From Dudresnaya verticillata (Eukaryota): 64,000 nt of DNA. The first letter of the stretch is position 1. Each line of letters starts with the position of its first letter. Position numbers and translations under genes: made by a program. The notes under the pieces are model-generated. The model saw only the letters and a list, made by a program, of their open reading frames with translations, ran no database searches and had not been told where the DNA came from. Where the stretch lies: assembly GCA_977862235.1 (NCBI GenBank), contig OZ374558.1, positions 372,001 through 436,000 of the forward strand, given 5' to 3'. Positions 30,219 through 64,000 of the stretch are shown here, one piece after another.

Positions 30219-31978
30219 GTGATCCACTTAGCCCTCTATTGTTTGCATTGGTCCTGCAACCTCTCTTGTGTCTCCTTCGTACCCGTTTCTCTATGCCTTT
30301 GCAGGTATTCTTCGCCGATGATGGAAACTCTCCTCCTGCCTCGCAGTATGCTCGGTTCAGTTCTTTCTTTCCTCGCAACGGAAGGATCTAAGATTGGGTT
30401 CCATCTCAATCTTTCCAAAACCACTGCTTGGTGGTGGCGCCGTCCCTCTCGAATCCCTGTCACTACTAACGGGTGCCATGTTACTATATCTCACGATGAT
30501 GCTCTAACTGTGCTCGGCTCTCCTATCGGACACTCTGCTGGTTGCCAAGCCCAGTTTCATTCCCGACGGATCAGGGAAACACGTCTGTTGGAAGCGCTTC
30601 CAACTCTAAATGACCCACAAATGGCCTATCATCTCTTGCGCTATTGCTCCGGTGCTTGAAAGCTGATCTATACCCTACGAACTGCCCCGCCGCATCTAAC
30701 ATTTCCTGAGGCCGATCTATTCGACCAAGGGCAGCGAAGGGCATTCGAACGTATTCATCACTCGCTTCCTGACGATTCCTGGACTTGTGCGACACTCCCG
30801 CTTGAATATGGCGGGCTTGGCCTCACCTCTACTACCACGCTTGTCGAGCTTTCCTATATCAGTTCTGTAATGGGGGTTTGGGATTTGTTCACTACTTTGA
30901 TCTCGCCTGCCCTTTCCATGTTCTCTCGCACAGACTCACGGCAGCGGAGTTTGGCTCGAACCTGTAATGCCCTGTGTACTCGGTTCGGATTATCTAGCGA
31001 TTATCACTTTTCAACTCTCCTCTCTCGCACCCAAAAGCGAGGTTACATCCCCCACTTGCAAGAAGAACTCTCCGCGAAGGTTCACGCTCGTTTGGTGGAT
31101 AATTACTGGCCCTCCATCCGTTCGACTGAGAGAGAAGATCGTGTGAAAAGGGCCCGACTTCTCTCCTGTGGTAGTTTGGAATCTAGAATGGCCTTTACCG
31201 CATTCCCCGATCCACACCGAGGCACCTCTGTGTCACCTGCTATATGGGCTACCATGATCGACTTGCGTTTGGGCGCACCTGTATTTGCGCCAGATCTCCC
31301 TTGTTCTGCGTGTCTATCCGTTTCTGGTCGCGTGGTTTCCCTTGACCGTTTGGGGTATCATGCTTCGACATGTCCCTGTGCCCATGGGTCCACTCGTCGT
31401 CACAATTCTATTAGGGATCTCCTTTTTTCTCGTCTCCGTCACCCGTCTATCGGGCTTTCTGTCACGAGAGAGCAGTCCTTTCATCTACAGGACGATCTTC
31501 GACGATTGGACTTGGTGTTGGATGATCCCGCCTTTTCTGATTCATGCATTGGTTATGACCTTACTATTGTGACTCCCTCTACTGCTCGCGCTGTATCCAA
31601 GGCATCTGAAATTCCTGCAGGGGCCGCCCAAGTCGCTGAACGGGACAAGCATCGCAAGTATCGCACTGCTTGTGCAGCACATTGTATTACGTTTCAGCCG
31701 CTGGGATTCGACATTCACGGAGGCATTGGCCCCGAATGCCGTAGCGCACTTCAAAAGCTCGCTTCTTTCCTGGCCAAGTGCCGGGGAACAAATCCTACTA
31801 CTGAATACCATTCGTTAGTTTCACCAATGGTTTCCCGCATTCTCCAGCTCACCGCCCTCGCCGTGAATCGTCGACGTCCCGTTAGTCCAGGCCTTCCAGT
31901 AGTTATCAGCGGCTAAGTCATTAGGGTTTCCGCTGTTCGTCTTGCTTCAATAAAGTTGTGATGATGATGATGATGATG
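30219..31978 (+). mobile_element. 5'-truncated CRE-clade-like non-LTR retrotransposon (RT C-terminal half, Zn knuckle, restriction-like endonuclease), frameshifted
   Basis: Starts at DPLSPLLFAL...FFADDG. ORF 30870..31916 has CSAC...H...C, RRHN, RLDLV...YDLTIV, AERDKHRKY, FQPLGFDIHGG. Ends aataaagttgt(GAT)n. The empty site at ~18071 (cttcttca/atgttct) shows no TSD. Confidence 0.9.
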
Positions 31979-43931: not shown

Positions 43932-44680
43932 TTTGAGGTGTGTCAGATGCTAGTTGTAGAGACTTGGAGATGGGCCGTTGGATTGATTTCGACTGTTTCG
44001 GTGTTGTCGTTTTGAAAAAGGAGAGATCGGTTACACCTGTCCCGGCATTTATACCATTCCATAGTCGGAGCATGAGCAATAAAGTTGTGATGATGATGAG
44101 CATGAGCAAGAAATCCGCCGATCAAGAGGACATTCGGCTTTGTATTGGAACCAAACATTTTTCGCAATCCCTATCCAGATTGTAACGCTTCATCCTCAAG
44201 GCCACAACGTGGAAGCTCTTCCCTGCGACAAGACAGAAAATTGAGGTTTGCAGGTTTGTGGTGAGGCTAGTGTCGAGAAGGATACTCAGACGTTTCAGCA
44301 AAGATCCTGGTTGCAATCGACGTAGCAACCCGCCGGGGTTGTCAAGTTTGTAATCAATGTCTTAAAGGGTGGGGCTGTGGCATCGATTGTTGCTGGTTCA
44401 AGGAAAGTGCGGCACAGACGACTCGCACGGTGGGCAAATAAGCATTTTGGTTGCAGGGATTGTGACTGCTAATGACACTCAAACCAAATCGCATCACTCT
44501 GCGCGAAGCATAGTGCAATTTCTTTTACATGTTGATTCAAAGATGCCGCTTTACAGGTATGAAAAGACTGACCAAGAACAGCGAACTTCGCTGAGCGTCC
44601 CGAAGGGGTATCCAGGGTACTGTATATGGTCCACCGAATAGTTGTCACCAGGATTGACGCCGACTCAAGATGGTTCACAA

Positions 44681-45496
44681 ATGCAGGACGCTAATTTGGG
44701 TACAGTGCCGAAAATGGTTTCAACAACAGTGACTCCCAATACGACTCCCGGGCGATACTCCGCAATGCCTTGTACGCTACTCTCGGGGACATCTAGGCTG
44801 TACTTAAGGGAGCCGGAAACTCTTCGTAGAGAGTTCCGCAAGTTCATCCTTTTCCAACAAGTTGGTAAAGGTGTCACGCTCATTTCCGAGTGGGAACGTC
44901 TCAGACCGATGACCGAGAACCGAGCCTTTCGAGAAAGCAACATCAAAGATGCCGAACCGGAGGAGTACAGCAAGGTTCTCAATCACCTCATGGCTAACAG
45001 TCTTGTTGGTCGTGCTCAGCTTTGGCCACGCAGCGAGTTTGTTCAACCGCATCATCCAAGCTATTTCAAGCTCCAGTCCAATTTGTACCGCGACACCGTC
45101 AAAAACGATCGCCGTAATGGGAAAGAGCTCGAATACATACACAGCTCCGGTACTTGGTTGGAACAGTCGCTTGCCGCCCTGGAACTATTCAAGTCTAGTT
45201 CGCATCCGTAAGAGCAGGGTCGCTTGCTCTTCATACTCGAAGAATCAATTCGTGCCAGTAGGGAAATCCTCGCGATGCGCACATTGCATTTCCACGCCAT
45301 TCTCACGAAGGGGCCAGCACATGCACGCCTGCTTGCTGATCTTTTCGAGGCTAAGGTGGAAGCAAAGCACTCTCAAGTACCTTCCGCACTCTACGCCGAT
45401 GTCTACAATGAGCTCTCTACCAAATACATCAACGAAGCTGCGAAAGGCATCGCTCATAACGCTACCGCGCCCAAGGAGGGTGCGAGCGATCAATGA
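44681..45496 (+). pseudogene. DIRS gag-like ORF1 with one premature stop
   Basis: ORFs 44642..45211 and 45224..45496 share a frame and are separated only by TAA at 45209-45211. Confidence 0.6.
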
Positions 45497-47154
45497 TGGC
45501 TCCCACAGGACCATCACGCCCGGAAACCTGGTCACAGGCGCGATGGGCATCCACCCAACGCCAGGCCAACGAGTGGGCCGGGATTGGAGCATCCTGTTTC
45601 GTGATTCGGATGTTAACATTTGGTATATTGGACCCTCCCCAGCGACCCTTCACAGCTGGTGCTATCCTGCCTGCGGTGCCACAGTCAAAGATGGATATGC
45701 GTTTCGCCAAGTCGGATCTGGAGGAAGGATGCAAAGTTGGTACATACCAACGCGTGTCCGAAGCGTACGCGAAGAAGAAGGTGCAGCAAGGCTGTTACGT
45801 GTCCTCCGCATTTGTGGAATGGAATTCCGGCAAAGGTCGATTCGTTATCAACCTAAAACGCCAGTCATCGCATTGGGACAAGAAGTCTGTTATGATGGAA
45901 TCGCTCAGTTCCTTTGCTTCCTGCCTGGTTCAAGGGGACCACATGCTGTCGTTCGACTGGAAGTGTGGATATCGACATTTCCGACTCCACTCACGCATGT
46001 GGGATTGGTTCTTGTTTCACTACGACGGCTGTTTCTACCGCTGCATTGCATTACCTTTCGGTTGGACGAGGTCACCCTACTGGTTTTGCCATCTCCTAAG
46101 TCCGCTGACTCGGTATATGCGCTCTGCATTGTATTGCCGCGTCCTCCAATGGATAGACGATTACCTCCTCGTCCCTGGAAACGGTTCTTCTCCCAGCACC
46201 TCAAAGGACTGCGAGGATCTCTCGTCAGCTCTGTACGTCCTGTTCAACCGACTGGGATTATTGAGACACCCATCCAAAGGCGTCTGGGGATCCGGCGCCG
46301 CTACCCTGTCACATCTCGGAGTTACAATAGATACAGTAGCATTTCGCTACTTTGTAACCCAGGAGAAGCTAGGGAAACTGCAAGATCATGCGGCGTCCTT
46401 GCTCAAGACAGCAGCCAAAGGTTCTCGGTGGGTACGGGAGCGGTCTATAGCAGAATTTACGGGACGCGCTATATCCCAGCTGCTCCCCCTCCCTCTTGCA
46501 CATTTCTTCACGAGGAGCTTGTACGACGACATGAAGAACTCCAAACCGCGGAGAGGAAGGTATCCGGAGCAATGTGTGCGCCTTTCAAATGCAGGCCTTC
46601 GAGATCTCAAGGCTTGGCGACATATGCTACAGGGGGATGGCAGATTGATAGGTGGCGGCAACCCACATTGGAACCTGCAAACGGACGCAGCAGATGTAGG
46701 TTTTGGAGGAACGGTGGGGCGGAATATGGCTGCTGGCTCTCCCGGAGACGTGGAAGTTCAAGGTATATGGTCTCCGTTCTTGCATCTCAAATCCATTACT
46801 CACCGCGAGCTTTTAGCCGTCCGACTCTCATTGCAGTCCGATCTAGTCCACGCTCGAGTCTCTGGTACCCACGAGAGGCTGATTCTACATGTGGACAACA
46901 TGAGCGTATTTTATATTATCAACAACATGGTATCCAGTACCCCGGAGCTAATGGACGAGCTACGCGCCCTTCACCAAGTCTTAGTGGAGATGAAAGTCAC
47001 CCTACGCGCCGTATGGCTTCCTTCCGCGGTCAACAAGCATGCGGATCGCCTCAGCCGTACCTGGAATCCGAAGGACCTGAAAGCGACTCCTTCACTGATT
47101 CAATCGTTGCAGGAGTCCTTGCAGCTTCAGCGGGTGCGCGTTATTGGCCTCTAG
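45493..47154 (+). CDS. DIRS reverse transcriptase / RNase H
   Basis: RFVINLK, FDWKCGYRH, LPFGW, WIDD, HLG; then LQTDAA, ITHRELLAV, VDN, NKHADRLSR. Confidence 0.9.
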   Translation: MMAPTGPSRPETWSQARWASTQRQANEWAGIGASCFVIRMLTFGILDPPQRPFTAGAILPAVPQSKMDMRFAKSDLEEGCKVGTYQRVSEAYAKKKVQQGCYVSSAFVEWNSGKGRFVINLKRQSSHWDKKSVMMESLSSFASCLVQGDHMLSFDWKCGYRHFRLHSRMWDWFLFHYDGCFYRCIALPFGWTRSPYWFCHLLSPLTRYMRSALYCRVLQWIDDYLLVPGNGSSPSTSKDCEDLSSALYVLFNRLGLLRHPSKGVWGSGAATLSHLGVTIDTVAFRYFVTQEKLGKLQDHAASLLKTAAKGSRWVRERSIAEFTGRAISQLLPLPLAHFFTRSLYDDMKNSKPRRGRYPEQCVRLSNAGLRDLKAWRHMLQGDGRLIGGGNPHWNLQTDAADVGFGGTVGRNMAAGSPGDVEVQGIWSPFLHLKSITHRELLAVRLSLQSDLVHARVSGTHERLILHVDNMSVFYIINNMVSSTPELMDELRALHQVLVEMKVTLRAVWLPSAVNKHADRLSRTWNPKDLKATPSLIQSLQESLQLQRVRVIGL

Positions 47155-47531
47155 GGGACGCCCCGGCGGCTCGAGCCAAGGTAATCAAGGCGCAACTGGG
47201 AGAGTTCTGGGGAGACGGCCAGAGCAGACTCTGGAACCCTCCCCCCCAGTGGATAGCAACCACACTCCTCAAGATCGAGAAAGAGCGAGCTCACGGCGTG
47301 GTGGTGGTTCCGCACTGGACGGGAGCCAGCTGGTACAATTTGTTGCGTCGCGTCTGCCTATCGTCACGTGTGGTCCCATCGACAGAGGGCCCTCTCTTCG
47401 ACTCCGTATCCGTGAATCCGGCTTGGGCACTCGAGCTGGCCGAAGTTGGACCCCGGCACAAGCAGCATTCCAAGCTTCCATCGAGACTCAGCTCCCTAGA
47501 ACTTCGGTTGGGCGCGCAAGCCGAAGACTAG
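47139..47531 (+). other. DIRS DAM-like adenine methyltransferase region, now frameshifted from pol
   Basis: LWNPPPQWIATTLLKIEKERAHGVVVVPHWTGASWYNLL at the end of ORF 44949..47531 matches the typical DIRS MT signature. Confidence 0.75.
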
Positions 47532-48496
47532 CTTCATCTGCACTCGCTTCCACGACAGGGGCTTCGAAGTCAAGCCAGTGGAAGAAGTTCGCCACGTTCT
47601 GTGCGCAGGAAGACCTCATGGCACTGCCCGCGGCCAAAGGGTCTGTCCTGGCATATTTCGGATTCCTTTTCGAAGAAGGGAGAGTTCATTCCCGATCCAT
47701 CGACCATTACGTCTCGGCTATACGGACAAGGCATCAACGCGACGGATTTCCAGATCCTTGCGAGGGACCAGCACTGAGCGACCTCGTTCGGGCTTTTAAA
47801 CGGGAGGACGACGGACGAGGATCACTACAAGATGTTCGTGTGGCCCTCCCCGGGTCTACCATATGGCGTATTAGATGCTTCGGCTTGACACAGAAGGCGG
47901 GTTCCGTTCTGCACCGCGATTCGGCTCTTATCGAGTTTCAGTACCTCATGATGTGGCGTGAATCGTCTGCACGGTCTATTGAAAAGCAGGATGTATCGGT
48001 TACGCATTATACCTCGGGAACTACAGCCTACATTTCGATATCCGCACGCCCACGCTCCTTCAAAGGCCGCCCGGTCCGCGGCATTGAGGCTCACGCACTG
48101 GTTTGTGCTGGATCAGGAGAAGATAACGCGTTGGCACTGCAGGCTTCTTTCTTTAAGCACCAGACATTCTCCTCTCCATCGAGTTTGTATTGGTCACTGG
48201 ATGGCATGAAAATGTCCCCACAATGTGTGACCCGAGCTTTGCAAAACATCCTAGCGAGTTTATCAGTGGTGCCTCCGGCGTTTGGGTTTTATGCCTCACA
48301 CAGTTTGCGAAGCGGTGCTGCGACGGCTTTAGTCCTACTAGGTGTTCCGCTCCCGGTGATTGTTCAACGTGGGGGTTGGCGCACATCCAGAATGGTCATC
48401 AATGTTTACTTCGACGGTCGACTCCGTCAAGACTCGGAAATGGAGCGCTACTTCTGGTCGCTCTTGCCAAGCACATCACTCCCGTCCCTGCAATAG
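47144..48496 (+). CDS. DIRS tyrosine recombinase
   Basis: QWKKFATFC and SIDHYVSAIRTRH (N-terminal domain); catalytic R in MWRES, then HSLRSGAAT, GGWRT and NVY. Confidence 0.9.
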   Translation: MASRGRPGGSSQGNQGATGRVLGRRPEQTLEPSPPVDSNHTPQDRERASSRRGGGSALDGSQLVQFVASRLPIVTCGPIDRGPSLRLRIRESGLGTRAGRSWTPAQAAFQASIETQLPRTSVGRASRRLASSALASTTGASKSSQWKKFATFCAQEDLMALPAAKGSVLAYFGFLFEEGRVHSRSIDHYVSAIRTRHQRDGFPDPCEGPALSDLVRAFKREDDGRGSLQDVRVALPGSTIWRIRCFGLTQKAGSVLHRDSALIEFQYLMMWRESSARSIEKQDVSVTHYTSGTTAYISISARPRSFKGRPVRGIEAHALVCAGSGEDNALALQASFFKHQTFSSPSSLYWSLDGMKMSPQCVTRALQNILASLSVVPPAFGFYASHSLRSGAATALVLLGVPLPVIVQRGGWRTSRMVINVYFDGRLRQDSEMERYFWSLLPSTSLPSLQ

Positions 48497-50730
48497 ACTA
48501 CGACGTGTAGCTCGCCATGTTCTAGTCCCTGCCGCTCTACATCGTCTCCGAAATCGGTTTTTCATGTTGTGTCAAAGATGCCGCTTTACAGGTATGAAAA
48601 GACTGACCAAGAACAGCGAACTTCGCTGAGCGTCCCGAAGGGGTATCTAGGGTACTGTATATGGTCCACCGAATAGTTGTCACCAGGATTGACGCCGACT
48701 CAAGATGGTTCACAAATGAAGGACGCTAATTTGGGTACAGTGCCGAAAATGGTGTCAACAACAGTGACTCCCAATACGACTCCAGGGCGATACTCCGCAA
48801 TGCCTTGTACGCTACTCTCGGGGACATCTAGGCTGTACTTAAGGGAGCCGGAAACTCTTCGTAGAGAGTTCCGCAAGTTCATCCTGTTCCCGCCCTCCCT
48901 CCCTAAGGATTTGATACTCACAAGTTCATCCTTTTCCTCCTCCTTCCTATACCTTGACAAGAGCGCCTAGAAGTGCTTCTATCCTCTTATCTTAGTTGTC
49001 ATCGGTTTGTCAAATGGAGTTCTATTTACAAGTAAAGGCTTCCATTTCTTTTCAATTTTCGTCATCCGCGTGCGATGGCATTGCCTAAGAAGGTGCCTCG
49101 CTGCCGTGCCGCCGTGTTGCTTGTTGATTTGCGGACATCCACAAGCTGAGTGGTAAACTCAGCTTAGTCGGAGATGACACGATGTGGATGGGTTGTTGCT
49201 GGCAAGGATGGTTCAGGCCTTTCCGTGATGTCATGGAGCCAACTCGCAGGAAGGGTTGTCAACAACCCCATCATCATCATCACAACTTTATTGAAGCAAG
49301 ACGAACAGCGGAAACCCTAATGACTTAGCCGCTGATGACTACTGGAAGGCCTGGACTAACGGGACGTCGACGATTCACGGCGAGGGCGGTGAGCTGGAGA
49401 ATGCGGGAAACCAGTGGTGAAACTAACGAACAACAACCCCTGCTGCAAGTTGGTTCCAGTAGACCCAGCCTTAGGTTAGGGCTTAGGATAGGTCTACTAG
49501 AGCCAACTCACGACACACACACATATTCCTTGTGGACATTGGATTTTTATCCTCCGCATTGTTCGGATATCAGACAACATACTTAACCGTTCTGTCTGCA
49601 TATTTTCTAAAGGGTGTTACTTGTTCTTCTTATCTTTGAAGCAGCAAGTAATTTATATCTATGCCAACATTCGTCGCCAACATTCGTCCCAATAACGTTT
49701 TCTCCTCTCCTTTCCGAGCGACAGATCCCAATAAATTGTACCCCTCAATAAATAAATATTTGCGGTCACTCTTTCCATTTTGCAGAACGTCATTGCAGCT
49801 AGACACGTTCTTTTTCAATATTTATTGAGGGACAGAATATGTGTTGCAATAACCCTTTCGAACCAACTGTGTTAACACAACGGGTTTATGACTAACGCAA
49901 TGCGAAAACTGAACCTTCAATATAAATATAAATTTATTGCATTGCGTGCCTACCCTTGACACAATACGAATTGAATATATCCCAGACACTACAAAAATGT
50001 TATCCCCCTATGAAGCTGTCTATTTAAAGCACGGGCTTTTTTCACGCTCAGAAGTACTGTTCTAATAACTCCTTGATCTCTAGAAAGAGACATAGTTTCT
50101 AGACTTAAAGCTCCAACATTGATATCTATTTCTGGGACAACTGCAAAACTAGAGCGAGATGCCATCCATATCAGTTTATTGAACAAGGAAACCCTCTGGT
50201 TGTGTCCCCTGGCGAAGTTCTGTCACCATCGCAGCCATGCCTGTCAATTGGATCTGAAATCCAACAACCATCCACAGAAGTTTTTGATATGGAAAGAATG
50301 TTTTCCGGTTGGAAACAAGTCAAGCTACGGTAACAGAGATGTTCTCTTTTTATTTCTTGTCTAGGGTGGTCCTATGCGGGCAAATAGGGCCCATGGTGGG
50401 CAATAACGTATACAGACGTAGAAGCGTGCCAAGAATGCCAAGAGTGCTGTTCTTTTCAATTTTCGTCGCACCAAAAAACGAGAGAGGACCCGTGGCCGTC
50501 AAGACACTACCCCGTACAAGGGGTAAGGGGACTCGGACCAACCAGCTTCCAGAAACACCAAGTCCTGCTTGCTGAAAAGGATGAGATACGTAAAGAAAAT
50601 CAAGAGAAGACTTCTCCGCCGTCGGGGCGATAACCTTCCAGAAAGCAACAAAGTTTGCAATGTGATCTGGTGCTTTTCTCGCCTGCTGACGCGAACTCGG
50701 AACGTGTAAGGTTGCGAAAGCACTTCTTCA

Positions 50731-51215
50731 GTGATCCACTTAGCCCTCTATTGTTTGCATTGGTCCTGCAACCTCTCTTGTGTCTCCTTCGTACCCGTTT
50801 CTCTATGCCTTTGCAGGTATTCTTCGCCGATGATGGAAACTCTCCTCCTGCCTCGCAGTATGCTCGGTTCAGTTCTTTCTTTCCTCGCAACGGAAGGATC
50901 TAAGATTGGGTTCCATCTCAATCTTTCCAAAACCACTGCTTGGTGGTGGCGCCGTCCCTCTCGAATCCCTGTCACTACTAACGGGTGCCATGTTACTATA
51001 TCTCACGATGATGCTCTAACTGTGCTCGGCTCTCCTATCGGACACTCTGCTGGTTGCCAAGCCCAGTTTCATTCCCGACGGATCAGGGAAACACGTCTGT
51101 TGGAAGCGCTTCCAACTCTAAATGACCCACAAATGGCCTATCATCTCTTGCGCTATTGCTCCGGTGCTTGAAAGCTGATCTATACCCTACGAACTGCCCC
51201 GCCGCATCTAACATT
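50731..51215 (+). mobile_element. 5' part of the same CRE insertion as 30219, truncated
   Basis: Same junction (cttcttca/gtgatcc) and sequence as 30219-30703, ending abruptly at the Gypsy. Confidence 0.9.
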
Positions 51216-53961
51216 GGTCTTACTTGGCTACTTCAAAGTAACCAAAAGGTCGCTGTGGCACACGTTCTATCGGCTATCCGTCCGGTAAGTCTCCGGAATC
51301 GGTTACAATCTGACCTGAACTTCGCCCAGCGTGGCCTCAAAAAGGATTTCAAAGGCTTCATTAAGCATACCCTTAAGGTTTCAGATGCCTTCCAGTTGGT
51401 TGACCAAGGTCCAAAGGCTAAGTCAAAGGACCAGAAACTTAACAAGTCATACCGTTCAGGAAACAACTCTACTACGCATACCTTTACGGAAATAACGTCA
51501 ACCTCAACAGGTACCAAACCTCAACGCGAGTTACCACCTTGCCCATTTGGTCCCTGTCGTGCAAAAGGGCTGAAGCATTTTATCAAGCATTGCCCAGAAG
51601 CAACCTACGAGGAAAAATCGAAGATGTACGAAGACCTTAAAGCCGCTAAACTTCGCGACGGTCCATCTCGGTCTACCCGTAGCCGAACTGGTTCTACTTC
51701 AACAAGTTCAAAGTCTACTTCCTCACCTATTGGTTCTAAACCGAGGACTTCGGGGCGAGTTGGTACTAAAACGTATCTCCCTGCAGTCGAACACTCTTTG
51801 GAGCATCCTTCCTGCAAGATTACCTTATCGGATGGTACCGTAGCGCTTACAGCTACTGGTCGTACCGACGATGGTAGTGACGACAGTCTCGTATCCCGAA
51901 AGGTTGCTGAAAAAGCAGTTCTCCAAGGAATTGGTAGGATGACAGCCATCAAACCTATTAAGTTGAGAGTCGCTCTCAAAGCTGGAGACGAATCTCAGCA
52001 GTTCTCCTTCTCCCGATCATGGACACCTCCGAGGACAGTACTTCATTTGTCTTCGGGACAACTTGCTCTCGTGAACGTAACTTACTTAGTTGCTGATGAG
52101 GAGCTTACGTGTGAGGACCTCCTCATTGGTTTACCGGTACTGCAGCATTTGCAGGTCGACACCAGAACCTTATTGAAATACAACCGTTCTGAATTGGATG
52201 GTGCAGACTGCTCCAGCATTGGTAACCCCACAAGGGAAAATCAAAAAGGTGCTATGAGCAGGATGATGATCTCGAGACTTAACCTAGTGACTGAAAATGG
52301 TACATCGACCACCACAGGTACTCAGGATGACCCACTCGTGGAACGTCCTCGCGTGAGTTACTTCCAGGCAAGGAACGAGGAGGATCCTTTTCCTGACCCC
52401 TCGTTGTTAGACCCAGTGGACAGTGACCAGCATGGTAATATTGAAGATGCCATCCAGGTCATGAAAAAAGCCGCCTTTGACGCAGGACTTCCTACAACCT
52501 CAAAGGAGACACTGTGCAAGATTGTGGACGAACACAAAAATATCTTCCGCACTGGTTTCTCTTCTGGTGAACCTGCACGGCTTCCTCCACTCAAGGTTGA
52601 ACTTACGCCTGACGCGCGACCTGTCAAGGTTCGCTTAAGAAATTACTCTCAGGAGCAGCGTTCGTTCCTTGCAAAATTTGTGGTGGAGCTCGTCCGGCAT
52701 GGATTGGCCTATCCGAACCCTACATCCGCATGGGCATGTGCACCTTTGTTGGTTCCCAAACCTGGTCCTGCAAGATATCGTTTTACTGTTGACTTACGCC
52801 CAGTCAATAAGTTCACCATGAAGCATCAGTACCCGATGCCAAACTTGGAACATGAACTCACTGAGCTATCTACCTCAAAGGTATATGCTACCTTTGATTT
52901 CTCACATGGTTATTGGCAGCTCGAGCTCGCTCGAGAATCGCAAGCCCTGCAGTCCTTTATAACCCCCGATGGCATTTATTCGCCTACGCGTGTCCTGCAC
53001 GGTACTACCAACGCGGTGTCACATTTACAGTCCTCTCTCGCGACAATACTACCCGACAAACTGCGTCGCAAGACTCTACGCTGGTTGGACGACGTTCTTG
53101 CCCACGATTCCACCATATCAGGTTTACTCGAGTCTATTCGTTCACTGTTTAGTCTCTTCGTACAGTACAACCTGAAATTACATCCGGTGAAGTGCACTCT
53201 CTTCGCAAAAACCATTCGCTGGTGTGGGAGACTGATTTCACCAACAGGTATTCGCTATGACCCAGCTCACCTTAATGGTCTCCTTCAAATGGCTCTTCCT
53301 ACCACCGGGGCACTCCTTCAACAATTTATCTGTGCTCTACAGTGGGTAAGATGCGGTATTCCCAACTTCACCAAATTGGTACAGCCCCTGCATGACTTCA
53401 TGGAGCTGATATATGACCATGCTGGTAAACGCACTAAGCGTGCCGTCGCGCGCTTCAGCTAGCCACCTTTGGCTGGAATCACCATCTTACGGAAACCTTT
53501 GAAGAATGCAAGAAAGCTCTCGCCCTTCAGGTTACGCTCGCGCATCGCGACTACAAAAAACGCCTCTGCATCTATACAGACGCATCCGATACCATATGGT
53601 CTGGTATCCTCACTCAGCTTCCCCACAAGGACCTTCCGCTACCGCCTTCGGAACAAAACCACGAACCTTTGGCATTCCTCTCAGGTCGATTTAACAAGAC
53701 CCAAATGGGTTGGTCCACTTTGGAGAAGGAAGCCTATGCGGTTGTCGCCTCCTTAACGCGCACCCACTGGCTTACTGCTACCCCCGAGGGTTTCGACTTG
53801 TATACGGATCATAACAATTTGATCTTCCTCTTCGACCCACTCTCGGTAGTTCCTGATCTCTCTCAGACTACCATTCGTAAGGTTCTCCGTTGGGCTGTCT
53901 GCCTCAGCGTTTACAATTATACTTGTTTCCATTTCAAGGGGCCGGACAATGTTTGGGCTGA
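51216..53961 (+). mobile_element. Ty3/Gypsy LTR retrotransposon internal fragment (gag C-terminus, protease, RT, RNase H), frameshifted
   Basis: CPFGPC...H...HC knuckle, DDGSD protease motif, RFTVDLRPVN, FDFSHGYWQ, WLDD; after a frameshift at ~53460, YTDAS, EKEAYAV, YTDHNNL, NVWAD. No LTR in view. Confidence 0.92.
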
Positions 53962-54757
53962 CACTACAAGTCCATTTCCGGGCCAGATCAATAAAGTCCC
54001 ATAAATTTTATTCAGGGCCGGGCCATACAATTACTGCTGCGGCGTGATGAAAATTCTGTACAGAAATTATATCCGTATCGGGCCAGACCTAGAAAATAGG
54101 ACTTAAGCCCCCGATAGATTTGGCGCCACGGCGCAGCCCGTTTAATCATCTTTGTGCGCCACGTACGTTGCGCTTGCACGATGAAGGAGCTGATCCGGAC
54201 AGTTAAACCCGTTGTCTCACGTTAACACTTTTACGCCTTTACAACATCAGTTGCTCAGTACTGAGACCACCTCAAGCGTTTATCGTATACACCGACTTGA
54301 CTTTGCTCAGACCAGTAGTATTGCTGTTCTGAACAATTACTGTGAAGTTCGAGACGCGCTTACATGACATTCTGAAACATGAGCAGTACTGCTCCTGCCC
54401 AACGAAGCAGTTGTTCTACAACAATACTGGCATCACTATTCTACGATACAATGAATGCGTCAGGTCACCGTTACTATCGTCCGCGCGCGTTGCATTTGTA
54501 GCTCCAGAGTAATGAAAAGTTGTCGTTTGCTTTACTTGTACACATTGGTCATAGTATCCTACCTACGCTAATCGTTAGAATATTTCCGGTACGAATCCGG
54601 AAAGATTCGAACAATTGTTCGAATGTTCACGCATGTCCACCTGATACCTTTACGCTAGAAGAGACTTTCAACGCTAGCGTTACGGCACATATATCTGTGT
54701 TGGTGATGAAGCTTCATGTGTTGGTGATGAAGCTTCATCATCAACACAGGTAAATGT

Positions 54758-55248
54758 GCCGTACGGCTCCTTGAAAGCTGCCATGCTTGCGTACGCGAAT
54801 CGATCTTCATCATAAGCACAGACGCAAATACGAAATGGACAGAAATGTTAGAGTCGGATCCTTACCGTACGGTGCTCGGCGTGATTGTAGGACTGGGTAT
54901 GCGTACGCGAAACTCACCTTGCCAATTGACAACTAATGTAGAAGAGACTTCCAACACTTGCAGTCATGTGGGCCGTACAGCTCCTTGAAAGCTGCCATGC
55001 TTGCGTACGCGAATCGATCTTCATCATAAGCACAGACGCAAATACTTCGCTTCGAAGTGGACAGAAATGTTAGAGTCGGATCCTGACCGTACGGTTCTCG
55101 GCGTGATTGTAGGACTGGGTATGCGTACGCGAAACTCACCTTGCCAATTGACAACTAAGGTAGAAGAGACGTCCAACACTTGCAGTCATGTGGGCCGTAC
55201 GGCTCCTTGAAAGCTGCCATGCTTGCGTACGCGAATCGATCTTCATCA
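54758..55248. repeat. Tandem repeat, ~214-221-bp unit, ~2.25 copies
   Basis: gccgtac(g/a)gctccttgaaagctgccatgcttgcgtacgcgaatcgatcttcatca at ~54758, 54972 and 55194. Confidence 0.9.
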
Positions 55249-56498
55249 ACTTGAGATTCACATGGTGATGAGACCTCTCAGAGAATGTCAGAGAATGAGG
55301 CGGACCGTGAGGTGAAGCGCACTTCGCCGCGCTCGGCTTGTCGTACGACAGGCTAGCGAGATTGAGCGCAAAGAAAATGTGTGAGATGCGTGGGTTCAGA
55401 CGCATAGGCACGACGGTCGTCGTCGATGCGTACGCGTCTGACCCGTCGCGATCGAACGCTGCATCAGTAAATCTGCCGAAAAGGCGGACTTTCGACATTT
55501 CTGTCATCTGATCCTCGAGAATCGCACGTACGTGCGCGTGCATCGCACAATGCATGCAGCCATAGCAATGGAGAACGCCACGCAAAATGCATAATGCGAG
55601 CATGCGGTGGCCACGGTTGGGGGTTGTTCTGTCAGTATCGATTATTTCTGGACAGTTATTGGCCAGATTTGTATTTCTGAAACGAGCTGCGGTACCGCAT
55701 GTCCACTGAGCCAGTAGAGTGAACTGTACATATCTGTAAGACGAGATCCCATGATCTCACAGTGTCGAGACCTTGAAAAAGATATTTAAATGTCCCATTG
55801 CCCAATCAGAGCTCAATGTATTTACATCATTTCAACGCTTATTGGTCGTCGTGATGCAATGAATATACGCACAGTCAAACGGGGTCTTCCATGTTTAATA
55901 AGGGTAAAAACAGTTTGCAGTACTGCACTGTAATCCATGGTCCCATGCCCACGTGGAGCTCGACTATGCTACCACCATTCGGGGTCTGTATGACCTATAC
56001 CCTGCACGCGCCTACCATATCAATGAATTTGCTCGTACCAGCGCTCGTTTTTTTCTCTTCTAAACATCTTTCCTGTACTTTCGAAACTCTCTATTTGTTG
56101 GTACAGGCCATACCCCCTTGTAAGTCTCGTCCGATACGTCTAATGATCTGGAACTGCAGTGGGAGTAAATATCGAAGCTTTTACAGAATAGCTATTGTTC
56201 GACATCCAGTACTGGTCAAGAACAAATACGCATATCTGATTTAAATTGCGCAGAGCAGAAGAGGTATTAAATTGATATTTATTGAAATACCATGACACCG
56301 TGTTTTCGATAGTAATACTGGTAGCTTGCCAAGCTGTACAGCTGAGCACAACTTAAGTTACTGAATGCATTCACTGCATGCAGTAACGAGGTACGGATCC
56401 GAGGTAAAGAATATTCTCTAAATGAAATGAAATAGCTACGCATTAATATTAAGGGGTTGCGCAGCAGATTTACTAGAAACAAATATTTAAGGTTAGCG

Positions 56499-59280
56499 TC
56501 AAGCAATTCTTGGTGGGTACCCATTAACGCGCCTTTGGAAGGACATTTTCCCGCCTTGTGATAAAGTTTCGCAGTGTCTGACCTCCCCTTTATCTGCATC
56601 GAACACACAACTCCGTACGGAGTTCTCCCCGTTCTGACAAAAGTGATACAACGCAACCCTTCGTACGCTGGGATGCAATTGGAGAACACGAAACGACTGA
56701 GAACTTAAAGGTTCTTCTATATGAAGAATAGAGTTTCCAGATGGTTTGCAACGCACGCAAAGCACCCACACACTATCTGGTACCAGAAGTGCACATAAAA
56801 CAACAAAAAGGTAAGGTTTCGCATCAGGGCTGGTATATGGTACCAGAAAGGGTCTTCCAATATCTTCAGGACTGAGATATGCTTGAATAACAGTGTTGAA
56901 GTAAATGCAATCGAACGCGGCAGGGGTTCCTATTTGCACGCCATTGTTTCCAACCCTAATTCTTTTCGCCAACTTATAAAGTTGAGGGATAGAACTATCT
57001 CCTCGACTGAGCCGTTCAGTGGAAGGATAAAATGCATTCAGGCTTTTCCAGGTTGATGTAAGGGCGTCCTCTACATCCCTCTCCGGAAGGCAAAGAGCTT
57101 TGGCTACATCCTGCGCTGTCGTACGACTTTTGCATATCCATTTCGAAGATTTCTGTACAGAAAAGTTTCCAGCTCTTCCTTGCTTCCCTATCTGCTTTTC
57201 TAGAGTGCGGTTAATATGTCCGCTAATGGCCGCGTCAGCTTTTGCCAGAATGTCGGAATCCTTCTCCTCGTCGAGCAAATGCACTTCTTCTCCGAGCAGC
57301 AGCCTTCGTTCGAAGCGCTTTTTTTGGATTTCGTGTTCAGGAGAACCGGAAAGTGCTAGCAGTACTGCTAGTCTTGCTTGCCAATCATTCCCCACACAAT
57401 GATCTATCGCCGAAAGGTGGGAATTTTTCTGGTTGCTTCTTTGAAGACATCGTTTCAGAGGTTGGTGCGCACACTCAAACACCAACTCCATAAACTCTCT
57501 AACATGTCCGAAGGCAGGTATGGAGTGTTCATAGAGTTCAATTAGACGGTGGAGGTTTGGTTTATCCAGCAGTTTCCTCTTCTCTTCAACCTCTGTACAG
57601 AGCTTTTCGCCACCTTCCACGTACCGTTTGGAGAGTACTCTCAACTCCGATATATAACTCATATTACTACCCCGGACGGTATCATAGGCCTTAAACCCAT
57701 CCAGTTCTTGCTCTGGCCACCAATAAGTGAATGCCACAAGCCGCTGGAAAAGTTTGAGAAGCTCCAGAGTTCGGTCGTATTCAGTACGGTTTGATCGAAT
57801 GAAAGCTCTTAAAATTGTGAACATCGGTACCGACACAACTAAGACACAGAATGTTCCCGAAAGGCTCATTGTGTTCAGCTTCTTGACATCCTCATTAAAT
57901 ACTCGCTTCTGTTTTATAAGTCCATTTTTAGTGACACCAGCACATATTCTGGCGTCCGCCTGTATTCTTAGTTCCTTTGTTGGGAGGCTGAGAAACATCG
58001 CTAGCATAATGTTTTTCGACAGTCCTGTCAAGAGATGATCTGGTGCCACGAGATTGGAACGGTACGCGTCGAACAGTCCTGTCACGACGGGTTCTCCTTG
58101 AACATTCTTCTGAATGCCTTATCGTGCGTCTTGCAAGGCGTTTTGGAAATATAGTAGAGGACAGTTACTGTCTGAGGCTTTGGATTGTCGTACGAGTCCA
58201 AGGAAGCTTGCATCTGCGTCCGCAATGCCATTTTTTCTAATAGACGTATGTCTCTCGCCGTGTCGAAGGAAAGCGGAATTCCTTGCGTGAACCTGTGTTG
58301 TATACCCATACCTCGTCCCATCAGCCTGTGATTTAGGGAGTCTTCGGAAGGAACACAAAGTGCACGGAGCATTTCTAACATGACCGACGACGTCAATCGT
58401 GCCCGCGGATGCTGGGTAGTCCGCAACGTACCCAACGACGTCGATAAATATTTTGACTGCCACACCGTCCGGTGTGAATCCATCTACTCCTTCTGAAGCT
58501 GCCTTAACCAAGTCTGCAACTATGAATCTCAATACCTCATTGGATGAAACTCCGGGAGGTGTTAAGCTAACTATCCGTACGGATGAAGCTGACCTTCGTG
58601 CCTCTGGGGTAACGAAATGGGGAGCATGTAACAACCTCCAGCTGACCCTTGAGAGCTCATTGTAACAGACGTTTGAAAGTCATCACAATATAAGAGTACT
58701 CTATATACAACGTATGGTTGCCCTCCCTTCTGAAGGATTCCATGCTTTTTGTTACTGCTCCGACTGGAAGGGAGATTGGGGAACAGACTGGTTCCGGGCA
58801 CATAGCAGACCCTCTCAACAACATGTTGTATTAATTTGTCCGGCTCTATTGCTATTATCCTGCAATTGATCTCAGTAAAACTCCGTACGGAGTCCCATTT
58901 TATCCAAATGACTGTCTTGGAAGCCTCCCCGTCCTCATTTCTCCAGAACCAATGCACAAGAATAGGGAAGACAGATGAGGGCGCTTCACACGTATTTTTC
59001 TTTGTATTGCGTAGAAGACAACATAGGTCTGAAGGGAGTACTCCCAAGGCAGAATACTCAGTATCACTTCTTGTTCCGGGTCCGGATGCAGAATCTTTTA
59101 AACATTCCATCACTTTCTTCTCGCGTTTTGATAAGTGTGCAAGCTTTACGGACCTTTCAAAGCTTTTTGTTGTCTTTCCATTTGCTCCAACGCTCAGCTC
59201 AAGGCCTCCTCAACTCTATCGTGGAAAGGTTTGTTCCGCCCACCACTCGCGGGCGACTGCCAGCTCCCTCAGCAAACAGG
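56499..59280 (-). pseudogene. CACTA/Plavaka-related DDE transposase, 5'-deleted, with one frameshift and premature stops
   Basis: YRVLLYCDDF, GGCYM (frameshift ~58610), GYVADYPA, PCTLC, TAA at 58119-58121 in frame with PDHLLTG, KPNLHRLIE, FECAHQPLKR. Confidence 0.8.
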
Positions 59281-59284
59281 GACA

Positions 59285-60440
59285 GTGAGCAGCATGGATA
59301 CGATCGCGGTTACGGAAGCGGAAGAACGGGCGAGGATCTAGGTGGTTATCATGGTTACAATGGATCTACAGATGGCTATAGAGGATCGTACGATCGTCAT
59401 TATGGGGAGCGTCATGGTACCCAGCAGCCGTATCGCAGTCAAGGTTACTACAATTCTGGAGACTACAACTCCAGAGGTTATAAGTACGATGACGGGTACA
59501 ATGCCGGTACCGGCGACGGATATGGTTACAGTGGTGGATACAATGGTGACGAAAACCGCATGGACCCGTATCACTCGCACAAAGATTACGGGAGTTCTTC
59601 GCGAGCTGTTACTGGTCAATACGGTCACGCAGGTTCCTCGTACGAAGAACCGACGCAATATCACCGCCGCAGGAACAGCCGATGGATACCAGTGATCCTT
59701 ACCGAAGCTCGCGTTATCCTGCTTCCCGTGCCCCAGCTGTCCGTGCGCCTACCTTTCAGGAGGCTTTCAAGCGTAACAGCACATCTCAAGCAGGACCTAG
59801 TGGCTCAGGTGAAGCCGGTCCGAGCAGCTCAGCTCAAGTAGCTCCCAGTACTGGGACGCATGTCGAGGAAGAAGTGCTAGACCTTCGTCCCCCGGAGACC
59901 CGCACTCGCCCAGGCACGCCGATTCGAGAGCCCGAGCGTGGCCCTGGCAGAAATGGTCCTGTACAGGAATCTGAATTGCGCCGCGCCATTACGCCGTACG
60001 TTGAGAAGGTTTCGGAACGGGAGAATGGTGGTGCCGGTACCTGCAAGGGACCCAAGCAAACTTCCACGCCTAGTCAGCCGTCTCCCTTCGCCCCGACCTC
60101 GCACCAGCAAGCCTTGAGGGATCGCCTTGCTCGGGAGAGTGCGAGCGCTGAAAAGTCTCGAGGCAATGAAGCCGTACGGCATGTGAAGGAGGGCTCGGGC
60201 GTGCCCGGCCCTGCCCGCGTGCAGTCTTCAATTGATGATGGAGAGGTTGCATCCAAAGAGCTGGCTTCCAGCACCGCTGCAAATAAGAAGAGTAGTCGTC
60301 TGTCTGGCTCCCCCGCTACGAAGAAGCTCCGGTCCGACGAGGGTCCATCAGCCTCCTCATGTGCTGATGGACCCGGCGCTGCTCCGCCTACCGACAAGAC
60401 TAAAGCGAACCGTATGGTTGGCAAGGGAAGGACAGAGTAA
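59285..60440 (+). pseudogene. Low-complexity cargo gene fragment (Gly/Tyr/Asp-rich, then Ser/Pro/Ala-rich), 5'-truncated and frameshifted
   Basis: HGYDRGYGSG...GYGYSGGYNGD in ORF 58975..59841 appears to continue in ORF 59682..60440 (MDTSDPYRSS...KKLRS). No start codon of its own; the upstream frame is antisense to the transposase. Confidence 0.55.
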
Positions 60441-60750
60441 TCTGATGAGAGTTGAGTACCAATTCTGTGCTTGAGCTGGTGGAATCGCGAACGCGTTCGC
60501 TACTCGAGTGGCAAGTACAAGATCTTGTGTGCTACATGGAGCTCATTCTAGAATTCATGCAGGATAGAGGTCTCCCCGGTGCCAGAAAGTGAACTGTGAC
60601 CTTGAGTGGCACCATAGTTGCAATATTGCTGTTGTAGTACAGCTATTTGTATGGACCAATGGTAGTAAATGTACGAGATTGATGTGTTTTGTGTTTGAAA
60701 ATTATCTTTTTATTAACACGAAGCGTGCGTTTCAGCAAGCAGCCAGAACG

Positions 60751-61270
60751 TGCGGGCGTACGCCATTACTTGCATACAACCTAACACAATTATGTTTACC
60801 GTGTTGTATCGTATCTATCCCTGCTGACGAATGTAAACTTCGTAGTACTACGTTTGTCTCCAGATTCAATCTGCAACTGCAATCTGTATAGTTTCATCTG
60901 TATAAGCATTGAATACATCGCTAAAATCGCGTAGGATTGTTGTAGCACGTCGTTGACGTATGTTAACATAGTAGTAGTATAGTAAATGTATATACTTTTG
61001 GATCCAGAATCCACGGTTGTATCTGCATGAACATGCAGATAACTCACGCTTCGTGAGTTTAAGAATACAGCCAGCACTTGCGGGCGTACGCCATTACTTT
61101 AAGTTGCGTACAACCTAACACAACTATGTTTGTCCCGTTGTGTCGTACCTATCCCCGCTGACGTATGTAAAAATCGTAGTACTACGTTTGTTGCGTGAAG
61201 CAATTTTATTTATCGCACGGGACTGTGCTAGGTCGTCGTCGATGTACATATATGTAAACATCGTAGTTTG
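60751..61270. repeat. Diverged tandem duplication, period ~328 bp
   Basis: tgcgggcgtacgccattactt...caacctaacacaa...cgtagtactacgtttgt at ~60751 and ~61079. Confidence 0.75.
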
Positions 61271-62285
61271 TCGGAAGAATGCGAAGATCAGCACGTTCGC
61301 GCTTGTTGGGAGGGAGCAGTACATGTACAGATCCGCTAGTTTTCCATCAAGTTGATGATTGGTTAGGAATGATCCTACCAAGATGCATGATCTGTCCACT
61401 CCACAAGACCCTCAAGAAGGAGTATACTCAGATGAGTGTCTTCATAACCCGCATAACCTGCTTGCATAAGCACGAATGCAAAACGCATTACATTTGACAG
61501 AATATTGTTGTAACAATTGTAACAATATTGTTATTTAAATATACGCATGTGTGTGGGAACATCACAAAATTGTGTGGATAGACCATACATAGAAAAGCTT
61601 TAAAGCTTTTCTAAGAATTCTTCGTACGAAGTAAATGCCAATCTACAACAATGGCACATTTGTATAGAAGTGGATAAATAACAAACGGGAATATCCAATT
61701 AATGTACAACTGAAACTTCTTTCCCTAACGTGCGTACGCACTGACCCACTTCTGTGAGATCCAAATAGTTCAACAGATAAATAATCCTATGTATGATACT
61801 AGCATCCTTACGGATAACATCCTTACGGATAATGGCATATGCCATTCTAGAATTTAGAAAACCCTGTCGCAGTGCTATGTAGATGTAGTGAGAACTTCAG
61901 AAATACATGTAAGAACAGCAATTGACTGCTGCGGCTGCAGCTCTGCAGTCGGTCAATTTCTGTTCTTCTAAAGTTATTAATAATCACATAAAACTCCGTA
62001 CGGATGGGTATCGATCGGTCTTCGATGGCAACCATCAAACTGGAATGCGTGTATATAGCATTATTATATGATTACTTTTAAATCGAATAAAACTAGAGAT
62101 GTTGAAAAGGTCCAGTAGGAAACCATACGCGCGAAGTAGCGCTACTTATCAGCTTGAGGGTTTTAGGGATCGCTAACTTTGAAAGTATTTAATGGTACCA
62201 TTCCTCGCATGTGTGCGTACGCGACTGATTGTGTATAAGTATCCAATTAAAGTACTTTACCCGTTGAGTATCAATATATTTATTG

Positions 62286-63536
62286 TTATAGACTGGCTAT
62301 TCCATTGTCCCATTGCTCCTCAATATTATTACCAGAGTTACATTCCCCCATATCCGCCTCCCTGTCCTCCTCCCTTAAATCCACTCCAACTTCTTCCTCG
62401 TTCAGCCTTTTGAACTCCTTTTCGTGCATGCGTACGCATTTGCTTTCCAAAATATTCTTCTGGTTGTACGTTCCAGGGAGCAAATCCTGCAAAGAGAGGC
62501 TGTCCAGCACAATCTTGCATGGGTCGCAGAATCGATTACTCACAAAGCTTGTTGAGTCCAGACTCTTTTGCACTATCTCCTTGATGGTGTGACCCAGAAT
62601 AACAACACATCGCAATGCAGACTTCTGCGTACGCATGAAAGCAGTTTCACCGGATACCCGGCAATATTCGACACAAATGTTCATTGCGACCTGTACCATG
62701 TGAAAAGAGCGACGGATTGTTCTTTTCTCTCCACCAGAGTGCTTCCTGTTGTTCCCGGTACCGGAAACAACATAAACGTCATACTCGCTCAGCAGAACGA
62801 AATCCTCATACTCTTCTAAAATGTTTGAGAAGAGCTTGGAGTTGTAGCTATCGGCTTGCAGGATTTTGGATTCGTCCGAACCTATTGAGCAAATCTCAGT
62901 GTCGGGGATTGCACTGACTTGCCGATCAGTACGAACAGAGCCTTTCCCACTGTTATCCGTACGGATAGCTCCAGAGAGTGCGCCATTTTCCCTCGCCTTG
63001 CCCTCCGAACTGGGCCCATTCCAAAATGCAATACTGGATTGCTGGTCTTGTAACTCAGTACTGAGTGCTTTCCAGTTCACAAGCATGAACCCGATGTTTT
63101 GGAAGAAGGACAATTTCACAGCATCACGGGATGAATGCAGCTGGGTACCCAGTTTCCGATAGACCCTAAGTGCCCCGTGGATTGCCACTTCGTCGGAAGT
63201 TGGGTTCTCCGAAGGGGTGAGTTCACGAGATGCCCTGGACTTCTCCAACTGTGCCCTGGCGTGTAGAATGTGGTCCACATTCACAGCTCCAGACTTCAAC
63301 CAATCCGGACGGATTATTTTTGCCTGCGGATGCCCTTGCAGGTGTTCACCTCCAGAATAATCAGAAGGGCCTTCCAATTTGAGTTGAGATGTTAAAGACG
63401 GATTAGCAGCGGAGGATGAAGTTTGGTCTTTGGCTCGTACGAGACCAAATGGACCATTGGATTTCGGGTCAAGCCCAGACGTCTGTACGGAACCCTTTCC
63501 TCCTGGACAGGACCCTTTTGTGACCGGCGACTCCAT
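62286..63536 (-). CDS. Hypothetical 416-aa protein, probably transposon cargo
   Basis: Long ATG-initiated ORF with a disordered N-terminus, a helical C-terminal half and an acidic tail. No family recognised. Confidence 0.6.
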   Translation of the reverse strand: MESPVTKGSCPGGKGSVQTSGLDPKSNGPFGLVRAKDQTSSSAANPSLTSQLKLEGPSDYSGGEHLQGHPQAKIIRPDWLKSGAVNVDHILHARAQLEKSRASRELTPSENPTSDEVAIHGALRVYRKLGTQLHSSRDAVKLSFFQNIGFMLVNWKALSTELQDQQSSIAFWNGPSSEGKARENGALSGAIRTDNSGKGSVRTDRQVSAIPDTEICSIGSDESKILQADSYNSKLFSNILEEYEDFVLLSEYDVYVVSGTGNNRKHSGGEKRTIRRSFHMVQVAMNICVEYCRVSGETAFMRTQKSALRCVVILGHTIKEIVQKSLDSTSFVSNRFCDPCKIVLDSLSLQDLLPGTYNQKNILESKCVRMHEKEFKRLNEEEVGVDLREEDREADMGECNSGNNIEEQWDNGIASL

Positions 63537-63629
63537 AAAGATCCCGAACGGGTCTCGAAATATGTTGAAGAATAGGTTTTGAACAACAGTAAACTTGAAC
63601 TGGCCATGATGCCTGCCTATCCCTTCCTC

Positions 63630-63998
63630 TCATTGCTTTCTCGTGGCAGCAGGCTGCAAACTGAACATCAAGGCTCCCAGACCAGCTGCACCACGGCTTC
63701 CCACTGAAAGATTCGTGGAGGGCACCGTATCGTTACAGTTTGTACGGGATCCATCAGGTTTCGAAGAACTTCGAAACAAATTGCAGACCAGTACTGGTAC
63801 ATTAAACGACATAATACGAGAAATAAGCATTGGATTGACAACAATATCAATGGAAGGCGTCAATGCATCTAGTTTCTTCTTCATCTCAGACTTTGTTGAC
63901 TTTCGGAAGGTTTTGCCGGTACCGGTTGCACCTTGGCTTCTGGACAGCAGCTGAACATGCCCACGAAGATCTTTCACTTGATCCTGAAGGGCACTTAC
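63630..63998 (-). CDS. C-terminus of a hypothetical protein (start outside the window)
   Basis: Frame is open to the window edge (VSALQDQVKDLRGHVQLLS...). Confidence 0.45.
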   Translation of the reverse strand, partial: VSALQDQVKDLRGHVQLLSRSQGATGTGKTFRKSTKSEMKKKLDALTPSIDIVVNPMLISRIMSFNVPVLVCNLFRSSSKPDGSRTNCNDTVPSTNLSVGSRGAAGLGALMFSLQPAATRKQ

Positions 63999-64000
63999 AA

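Follow-up and report, generated by a model that had tools for sequence, protein, structure and literature searches.

The last 10 kb of a 64,000-nucleotide stretch of Dudresnaya verticillata DNA (contig OZ374558.1 of assembly GCA_977862235.1, positions 372,001 to 436,000; the whole stretch is hereafter the window) belong to a transposon that carries a dense array of palindromes centred on GTAC, the arms of which pair with each other and vary from site to site. The array is real and strong, is confined to the element and is present in its coding DNA. GTAC occurs 94 times in the visible part of the element (53962-64000), and perfect palindromes of at least 10 bp are centred on 49 of these sites and of at least 12 bp on 32. 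A preliminary description, which had counted about 90 sites by eye and about 49 palindromes of at least 10 bp, is thus confirmed: its eight positioned examples lie where it had placed them and its seven unpositioned 12-mers are all present. With a probability of roughly one half, the array may be a selected self-label of the element, read by its shape (a small hairpin) by an element-encoded candidate protein. The features on which the comparison rests are:

53962..53970, plus strand: CACTA/EnSpm-type terminus CACTACAAG, which cuts the RNase H frame of a Gypsy element at GPDNVWAD.
51126..53961, plus strand: Gypsy pol fragment (reverse transcriptase, RNase H), the insertion target of the element and a negative control without the signal.
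54054..63926, no strand: array of N4-GTAC-N4' palindromes dispersed over the element, comprising 58 GTAC sites at which three or all four of the arm pairs are present.
54054..63926, variant part of the same array: 20 sites centred on GTCC, GGAC, GTTC or GAAC, the three inner arm positions of which pair; over the whole array the gaps average 128 bp.

Dinucleotide shuffles of 53962-64000 (n=500) gave means of 31.9+-5.3 GTAC, 0.51 palindromes of at least 10 bp and 0.15 of at least 12 bp, with maxima of 46, 3 and 3, respectively. Counted by centre, none of the other 15 palindromic 4-mers has more than five sites of at least 10 bp. The remaining 54 kb of the window hold 172 GTAC sites at which symmetry is about that of chance (53, 43, 46 and 44 matches at arm positions 1-4), with four matching pairs at only one of the 172. 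The preliminary description had offered shuffled sequence and ordinary DNA as the tests of its claim, and in both comparisons the claim holds. It had also placed the start of the signal at the CACTA end, which is what is seen: the adjacent Gypsy sequence (50700-53961) has 15 GTAC sites and none of at least 10 bp, no GTAC palindrome as long as 8 bp occurs in 50001-54000, and symmetry is first met about 95 bases inward of the CACTAC end at 53962. The total number of GTAC in the element is three times the background, whereas asymmetric GTAC is at background level. As the count of asymmetric sites (about 36) matches the number predicted by chance, the symmetric sites are extra sites and not converted ones. 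Duplicated copies account for 10 of the 94 sites, the other 84 lying outside them, and tandem amplification was rejected as the source since the signal persists after removal of the 10. An assembly or sequencing artefact, or chance, is hardly credible, as the signal stops at a biological boundary, reading frames are respected and their proteins align with homologues, and sites are kept in diverged internal duplicates.

Outward from the core, the arms pair at 69, 65, 57, 51, 33, 24 and 25 of the 94 sites (chance about 23.5). The symmetry ends after arm position 4, and the unit is therefore a 12-mer, N4-GTAC-N4'. Among the 32 perfect 12-mers there are 26 different arms, and when arms were swapped between the 84 non-duplicate sites 0.5 perfect sites were expected (maximum 4 in 5000 swaps) compared to 31 observed. 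A degenerate single consensus, or a sequence preference, therefore cannot explain the symmetry and was rejected, in agreement with the earlier statement that the arms are not one repeated motif. The arms are not wholly free, as C is preferred beside the core, and the commonest 8-mers in the element are GCGTACGC (12 copies) and CCGTACGG (10 copies). Such preferences would suit recognition of the duplex by dimeric element proteins, the sites being operators of tolerant or family-specific dimers in the manner of ParB and parS. Giant Plavaka (EnSpm/CACTA) elements of red algae carry three accessory genes, PAG1-3 (Petroll et al., 10.1101/2025.02.11.637652); PAG1 has no assigned function there, PAG2 combines a PF01555 methylase with a SET domain, and PAG3 combines a ParB-like domain with a 2-oxoglutarate (2OG) oxygenase and lies beside inverted-repeat arrays. 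PAG3 could thus be the dimer in question, and the fixed quasi-palindrome of the related locus L017, treated below, is also in favour. However, one dimer with independent half-sites yields no co-variation of the arms, the number of different arms is large, and the relation between GC content and arm length follows stem stability, which together make duplex recognition unlikely.

This relation was seen in the 45 non-duplicate sites with three inner pairs. A fourth pair is present at 11/12 sites with at most one G/C in the inner arm, at 18/26 with two and at 2/7 with three (p=0.003), i.e. GC-rich arms are shorter than AT-rich ones, while the fifth pair is at chance (9/31). The trade-off tracks stem stability and suggests a structural threshold. 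Three inner pairs are also found at 11/70 sites centred on GGAC/GTCC and 9/88 centred on GAAC/GTTC, but at 0/80 centred on GCAC/GTGC, although this transition variant would be expected from decay. By strand, the variant centres comprise 8 GTCC, 3 GGAC, 5 GAAC and 4 GTTC. Their presence on both strands favours a signal at the level of DNA rather than RNA, and an RNA-level signal was therefore rejected. The variant centres are concentrated in the two conserved genes of the element (17/87 compared to 3/71 elsewhere, p=0.004, and to 3/50 in strictly non-coding DNA, p=0.04), where protein constraint may forbid GTAC:

56502..59209, minus strand: Plavaka/EnSpm-type DDE transposase, broken, with 13 GTAC palindromes of at least 10 bp.
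62289..63998, minus strand: 3' part of an accessory gene, with 9 GTAC palindromes of at least 10 bp; runs past the end of the window.

These two genes hold 22 sites of at least 10 bp, and their 14 perfect 12-mers compare to 0.12 in 1000 synonymous codon shuffles, the codon-preserving control proposed in the preliminary description. Synonymous opportunities are realised at 14/27 positions for 12-mers and at 22/33 for 10-mers. The opportunities are themselves frequent, at 1.8 per 100 residues in the element proteins compared to 0-1.1 in 17 homologues, and palindrome-encodable positions exceed those in residue shuffles (16 vs 6.6 and 11 vs 3.2). The palindrome sites fall in less conserved protein columns, often with atypical residues; the V in RVLS at one site is shared by 0/27 homologues. 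The raised density of opportunities and the atypical residues suggest that the force behind the motif has likely changed the amino acids of the element. The proteins P0032 (a homologue of the accessory protein) and P0079 have an excess of peptides that a GTAC palindrome could encode (12 vs 5.2 and 4.5). With 144 proteins considered this falls short of significance, and most of the positions differ from those in the window.

The 78 symmetric sites are more evenly spaced than random ones (coefficient of variation, CV, 0.65 vs 0.89+-0.10, p=0.001), also after leaving out the tandem array (p=0.0006), whereas asymmetric GTAC sites are randomly spaced (CV 0.91). No helical phasing of 10-11 bp is seen between sites. 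Conservation within the element can be followed in a non-coding part:

60438..62288, no strand: intergenic region, in which palindromes of at least 10 bp number 9 with a GTAC centre and 16 with another centre.
60724-60857 and 61052-61191: old, 82%-identical duplication in the intergenic region, in which both palindromes are kept unchanged.

None of the 19 mismatches between the copies falls within the 22 palindrome columns (0/19, p=0.025).

The question of how symmetric stems arise is illuminated by palindromes of at least 10 bp with other centres, of which the two non-coding parts hold 10 and 16 compared to 2.9 and 2.2 in shuffles (the 10 of the first part being equalled by the top shuffle of 150), and the two genes 1 and 1, which is no excess. 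Template switching is a mechanism by which fold-back palindromes form, and one fold-back duplication lies in the element:

54665..54777, no strand: imperfect inverted (fold-back) duplication of 113 bp, which opens the tandem array and includes a CTAG-centred 12-mer.

This duplication, together with the excess of other centres, makes it likely that template switching operates in the element and can supply stems. Outside the element, two long near-perfect hairpins are found at 2514-2562 (a stem of about 19 bp) and at 4187-4228 (a 42-bp palindrome), which suggests fold-back events in host DNA too.

Among eleven related loci (66 kb), the transposases of which, where present, are 27-49% identical, GTAC palindromes of at least 10 bp occur at 2/256 sites, and the feature is therefore specific to its family. 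No enriched dispersed 6-9-mer is present in 12 of the 13 loci examined (L012 repeating L010), and a search of viral contigs for relatives found nothing. L017 (= L011; 6.6 kb, 1-6579, G001:C114) holds 19 copies of a fixed 8-mer, GCGTTCGC/GCGAACGC, out of 33 matches to GCGTTCGC in its 2.1-Mb assembly, with 15 copies in its first 4.8 kb where 0.14 are expected. The copies lie in coding and non-coding DNA and on both strands and are fairly evenly spaced (CV 0.64, p=0.03). Symmetry extends to the following base pair at 9/19, with three different pairs (p=0.04), and only three one-mismatch sites occur, two being the full palindromes GCGTACGC and GCGATCGC. The core of GCGTTCGC is of the type G-T-x-C, one of the centres tolerated in the window element, and GCGTTCGC is itself a HIP-like motif of its family. 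Also present at the locus are a gene distantly homologous to the accessory one and a second gene resembling neighbours of three related transposases, and the contig is likely algal DNA binned with a prokaryote. Contigs with a red-algal-type Plavaka transposase within a prokaryote bin are also seen at L010 and L013, likely as host contamination.

RAG forms hairpins. The transposases of the CMCT clade are related to RAG1 (PMC12730594), and the palindromes could be scars of transposase hairpin chemistry, P-nucleotide-like and internal between GT and AC, or of regional host repair. A hairpin tip between GT and AC would generate new GTAC centres, and a cluster of long palindromes is found just behind the transposase stop of another related locus (L001:3180-3405, eight palindromes of 10-20 bp with varied centres in about 220 bases). 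Nevertheless such an origin is improbable, as scars of this kind usually change length, yet the reading frames continue through the sites; GTCC and GTTC centres are not accounted for, the related loci have next to no long GTAC palindromes, and the neighbouring DNA is without the signal.

Several patterns point to hairpin selection rather than to pure mutational copying, namely the trade-off between GC content and length, the tolerance of centres, the even spacing and the use of synonymous positions. Fold-back template switching would supply symmetric stems, and those with a GTAC cap, or less well GTCC/GTTC, would be kept once their stability passes a threshold, even where amino acids have to change. 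The roughly even coverage would let a reader mark or protect the entire element, as VANC does for VANDAL. Candidate readers would be the N6/N4 methylase-SET protein PAG2, the ParB-2OG oxygenase PAG3, or the accessory protein at 62289-63998. On one strand all accepted centres read G-D-A-C, as would be fitting for an enzyme that modifies adenine in unpaired DNA. PAG2 may be a beta-class N6-adenine methylase that acts on the sites of the element, and some enzymes of this class act on single-stranded DNA (PMC7544214).

A less probable explanation is an enzymatic writer, which would nick or modify GT[A/C/T]C, whereupon the 3' end would fold back on a mini-loop and about four bases of one flank would be copied onto the other; repeated events would make and repair the sites without benefit, and purifying selection would only filter the protein changes. 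Symmetric arms of arbitrary sequence are most simply produced by copying in one step, the cut-off after four pairs is sharp, the fold-back duplication and the other-centre palindromes show that such copying occurs here, and a methylation-driven writer has been proposed for HIP1 by Elhai (PMC4390886). However, the tripled GTAC requires an extra step, asymmetric GTAC is not depleted, and neither shorter GC-rich stems, even spacing nor a concentration of variants in coding DNA is predicted. Both arms are moreover unchanged in the old duplicate, though copying in either direction should alter them jointly. The preliminary description had named three mechanisms (fold-back repair at GTAC, internal hairpin formation by the transposase, and selection for hairpins in a single-stranded phase). 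Of these, hairpin selection fits best, while copying of one flank at existing GTAC sites does not on its own account for the threefold GTAC excess, the trade-off, the spacing or the tolerance of GTCC/GTTC but not GTGC.

A number of observations weigh against a selected hairpin label. Seven perfect-armed sites have a broken outer centre base (one being a tandem duplicate) compared to only two with an intact centre and a single inner-arm mismatch; this excess weakly favours active arm repair at GTAC and is the main point for copying by a writer. The predicted folding energy of the hairpins is weak (median -1.9 kcal/mol), and they would not be extruded from relaxed duplex unaided but would need supercoiling, single-stranded exposure or a protein. 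The variant centres were selected post hoc, after inspection of the data, their p values (1e-8 and 1e-5) being still significant after correction for all 4-mers, and their tendency to fill gaps is of borderline significance overall (p=0.047) and not significant within the genes (0.18 and 0.11). Evenness is not significant for the 58 GTAC-only sites (p=0.058), for transposase GTAC sites of at least 10 bp (p=0.59) or under permutation of the symmetric label over all 94 GTAC sites (p=0.20). The ratio of observed to expected CpG (0.99 vs 0.85-0.97 in the neighbours) gives no sign of methylation protection, and a search of the open reading frames of the window for domains yielded neither a methylase nor a SET, ParB or oxygenase domain. 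At L017, no transposase is present on the contig and the accessory protein is only distantly related (profile E-value, E, 1.8e-50, no direct BLASTP match). Finally, the analysis of the array rests on one decayed copy of the element.

A wider form of the self-label, to which somewhat less weight is given than to the label itself, is a structure code along the whole element, in which any 4-bp stem capped by GTAC would serve, the element's own accessory enzyme would read the hairpin and sister families would use related cores such as GCGTTCGC. If true, this would be self-recognition by DNA shape, a hard target for sequence-guided host defence, and recognition strong enough to reshape the proteins of the element.

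The carrier, called a CACTA element in the preliminary description, does have a CACTA/EnSpm-type terminus but is better named Plavaka/EnSpm-type. As judged from its sequence, it is probably a broken transposon of this type, inserted in the Gypsy element and with red-algal relatives. It extends past the window, its opposite end lying outside the 64 kb, and includes, besides the features given above:

53979..54095, plus strand: two subterminal 17-nt direct repeats with a CGGGCCAGA core, 82% alike.
54758..55248, plus strand: tandem repeat of a 222-bp unit with four GTAC sites, present in 2.3 copies.
59203..60437, plus strand: Gly/Tyr/Ser-rich low-complexity reading frames with 5 GTAC palindromes of at least 10 bp.

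Most differences among the 222-bp tandem copies (54755-55248) are T/G transversions, which reflects either an unusual spectrum or sequencing error. The transposase is damaged by a stop (58119-58121), a frameshift near 58610 and the loss of its 5' part. It has 16 near-length homologues with 24-52% identity, one from Gracilariopsis chorda, which points to a florideophyte red alga as the likely host, and no close relative was found among the matches, the best identities being 52% among the 16 near-length and 57% among 14 short ones. A C(2)C motif, PCTLC, and the conserved acidic motifs YCDDF, ADYP and FECAH align with homologues, the latter three being what we take to be the catalytic triad. For the H(3-4)H motif a conserved PDHLL is seen, with no invariant histidine pair assignable. 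The Pfam family Plavaka (PF18759) matches a 186-residue fragment weakly (E 9e-4, 18.9 bits, under the cut-off of 26.3), and no Rfam match occurs in 53000-64000. The CACTAC at 53962, which breaks the Gypsy frame, agrees with the 5'-CA(C) terminus included in the definition of the CMCT clade (PMC12730594). The frames at 59203..60437 match no family; a second cargo gene has probably left its 3' part here, an internal deletion having brought it up against the transposase.

The accessory gene at 62289-63998 has an in-frame stop near 63630, while its relatives are about 750-900 residues long. The protein has 240 relatives at E<=0.001, and a homologue of the gene adjoins the transposase in locus L002. 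No Pfam family was found in the 29 homologues examined and no sequence match in PDB. A two-sequence model of the protein was useless, with a predicted local distance difference test (pLDDT) of 34, whereas a model of the homologue P0032 from 103 sequences has 356 residues at pLDDT >=90 and predicts, besides a disordered N-terminus, a coiled coil and a domain that is mostly helical. In searches with the whole P0032 model, by which the helical domain was barely tested, nothing in PDB or BFVD reached E<=0.001 with Foldseek, and VIA-align matched only the coiled coil (Z<=6.4). Possibly the gene is PAG1.

Neither PAG2 nor PAG3 was found in the visible 10 kb of the element, which resembles the red-algal Plavakas of Petroll et al. 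in its transposase type, its host group (as judged from homologues), its large size and its accessory genes. Inverted repeats are proposed there as self-binding sites. However, in the described elements tandem inverted-repeat arrays adjoin PAG3, and 'palindrom' is absent from the main text of that study, whereas the sites of the window element are dispersed over coding and non-coding DNA, with non-repeated, co-varying arms. The closest bacterial analogue is HIP1 (GCGATCGC) of cyanobacteria, a hyper-abundant palindrome within and between genes with non-random spacing, for which selection and a methylation-linked writer are debated (PMC5861425, PMC4390886). Both GCGTTCGC of L017 and the commonest 8-mer of the element, GCGTACGC, resemble it. 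While HIP1 is one fixed sequence, genome-wide and bacterial, the present array has four fixed bases with co-varying arms in a single eukaryotic transposon; it is over-represented within and between genes, but has 26 arms at 32 sites and does not extend to the remaining 54 kb of the window. The analogy to HIP1 with free arms, drawn in the preliminary description, is thereby supported. In VANDAL elements of Arabidopsis, recognised by VANC, a DNA transposon likewise carries a dense, family-specific short motif that differs between related families, but there the motif is of fixed sequence and not palindromic, lies mainly in non-coding DNA with all copies in one orientation, and has been amplified through tandem repeats (PMC5735166). 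The array described here has variable arms, 22 genic sites and 10/94 sites in duplicates.

Integron attC sites and the hairpin promoters of phage N4 are DNA hairpins read by structure, few and positional. The array has, like them, a short fixed core, and would share with them a stem in which pairing and not sequence matters and an action on transiently unpaired DNA. APOBEC3A likewise selects small DNA hairpin loops by structure (PMC7952602). However, its sites are accidental targets, and in none of these systems is a eukaryotic transposon labelled along its whole length. No earlier description of the GTAC feature was found in the literature searched, the coverage of which is partial; the supplements of Petroll et al. 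(Fig. 13, Table 6) may describe inverted repeats, and nothing on a GTAC loop was found in the part of PMC3201870 consulted. Possibly the array is a variant of the iterated self-motifs of transposons with a new recognition logic. Self-recognition and escape from silencing by transposons are known in detail only for VANDAL and VANC, with fixed motifs, and a dense signal with free but pairing arms would be a different logic. It would also give the idea of self-modification by the accessory genes of red-algal Plavakas a concrete substrate, and would make the HIP1 question, selection or writer, testable, as the copies of a transposon family allow paired arm changes to be counted.

Elsewhere in the window, positions 1-1614 (minus strand) encode a likely secreted cysteine-rich protein of repeats of about 35 residues, with no Pfam match. 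A unit of about 12.1 kb with an F-box-like gene is present in three tandem copies of 96-99.8% identity (6577-50736), the later copies being interrupted by LINE-type, DIRS-type and Gypsy insertions. The DIRS-like element (44523-48890) has reverse transcriptase and tyrosine recombinase frames and 333-bp direct repeats at its ends, and a 162-bp piece of the 12.1-kb unit (31811-31972) lies inverted at the end of a LINE-like insertion.

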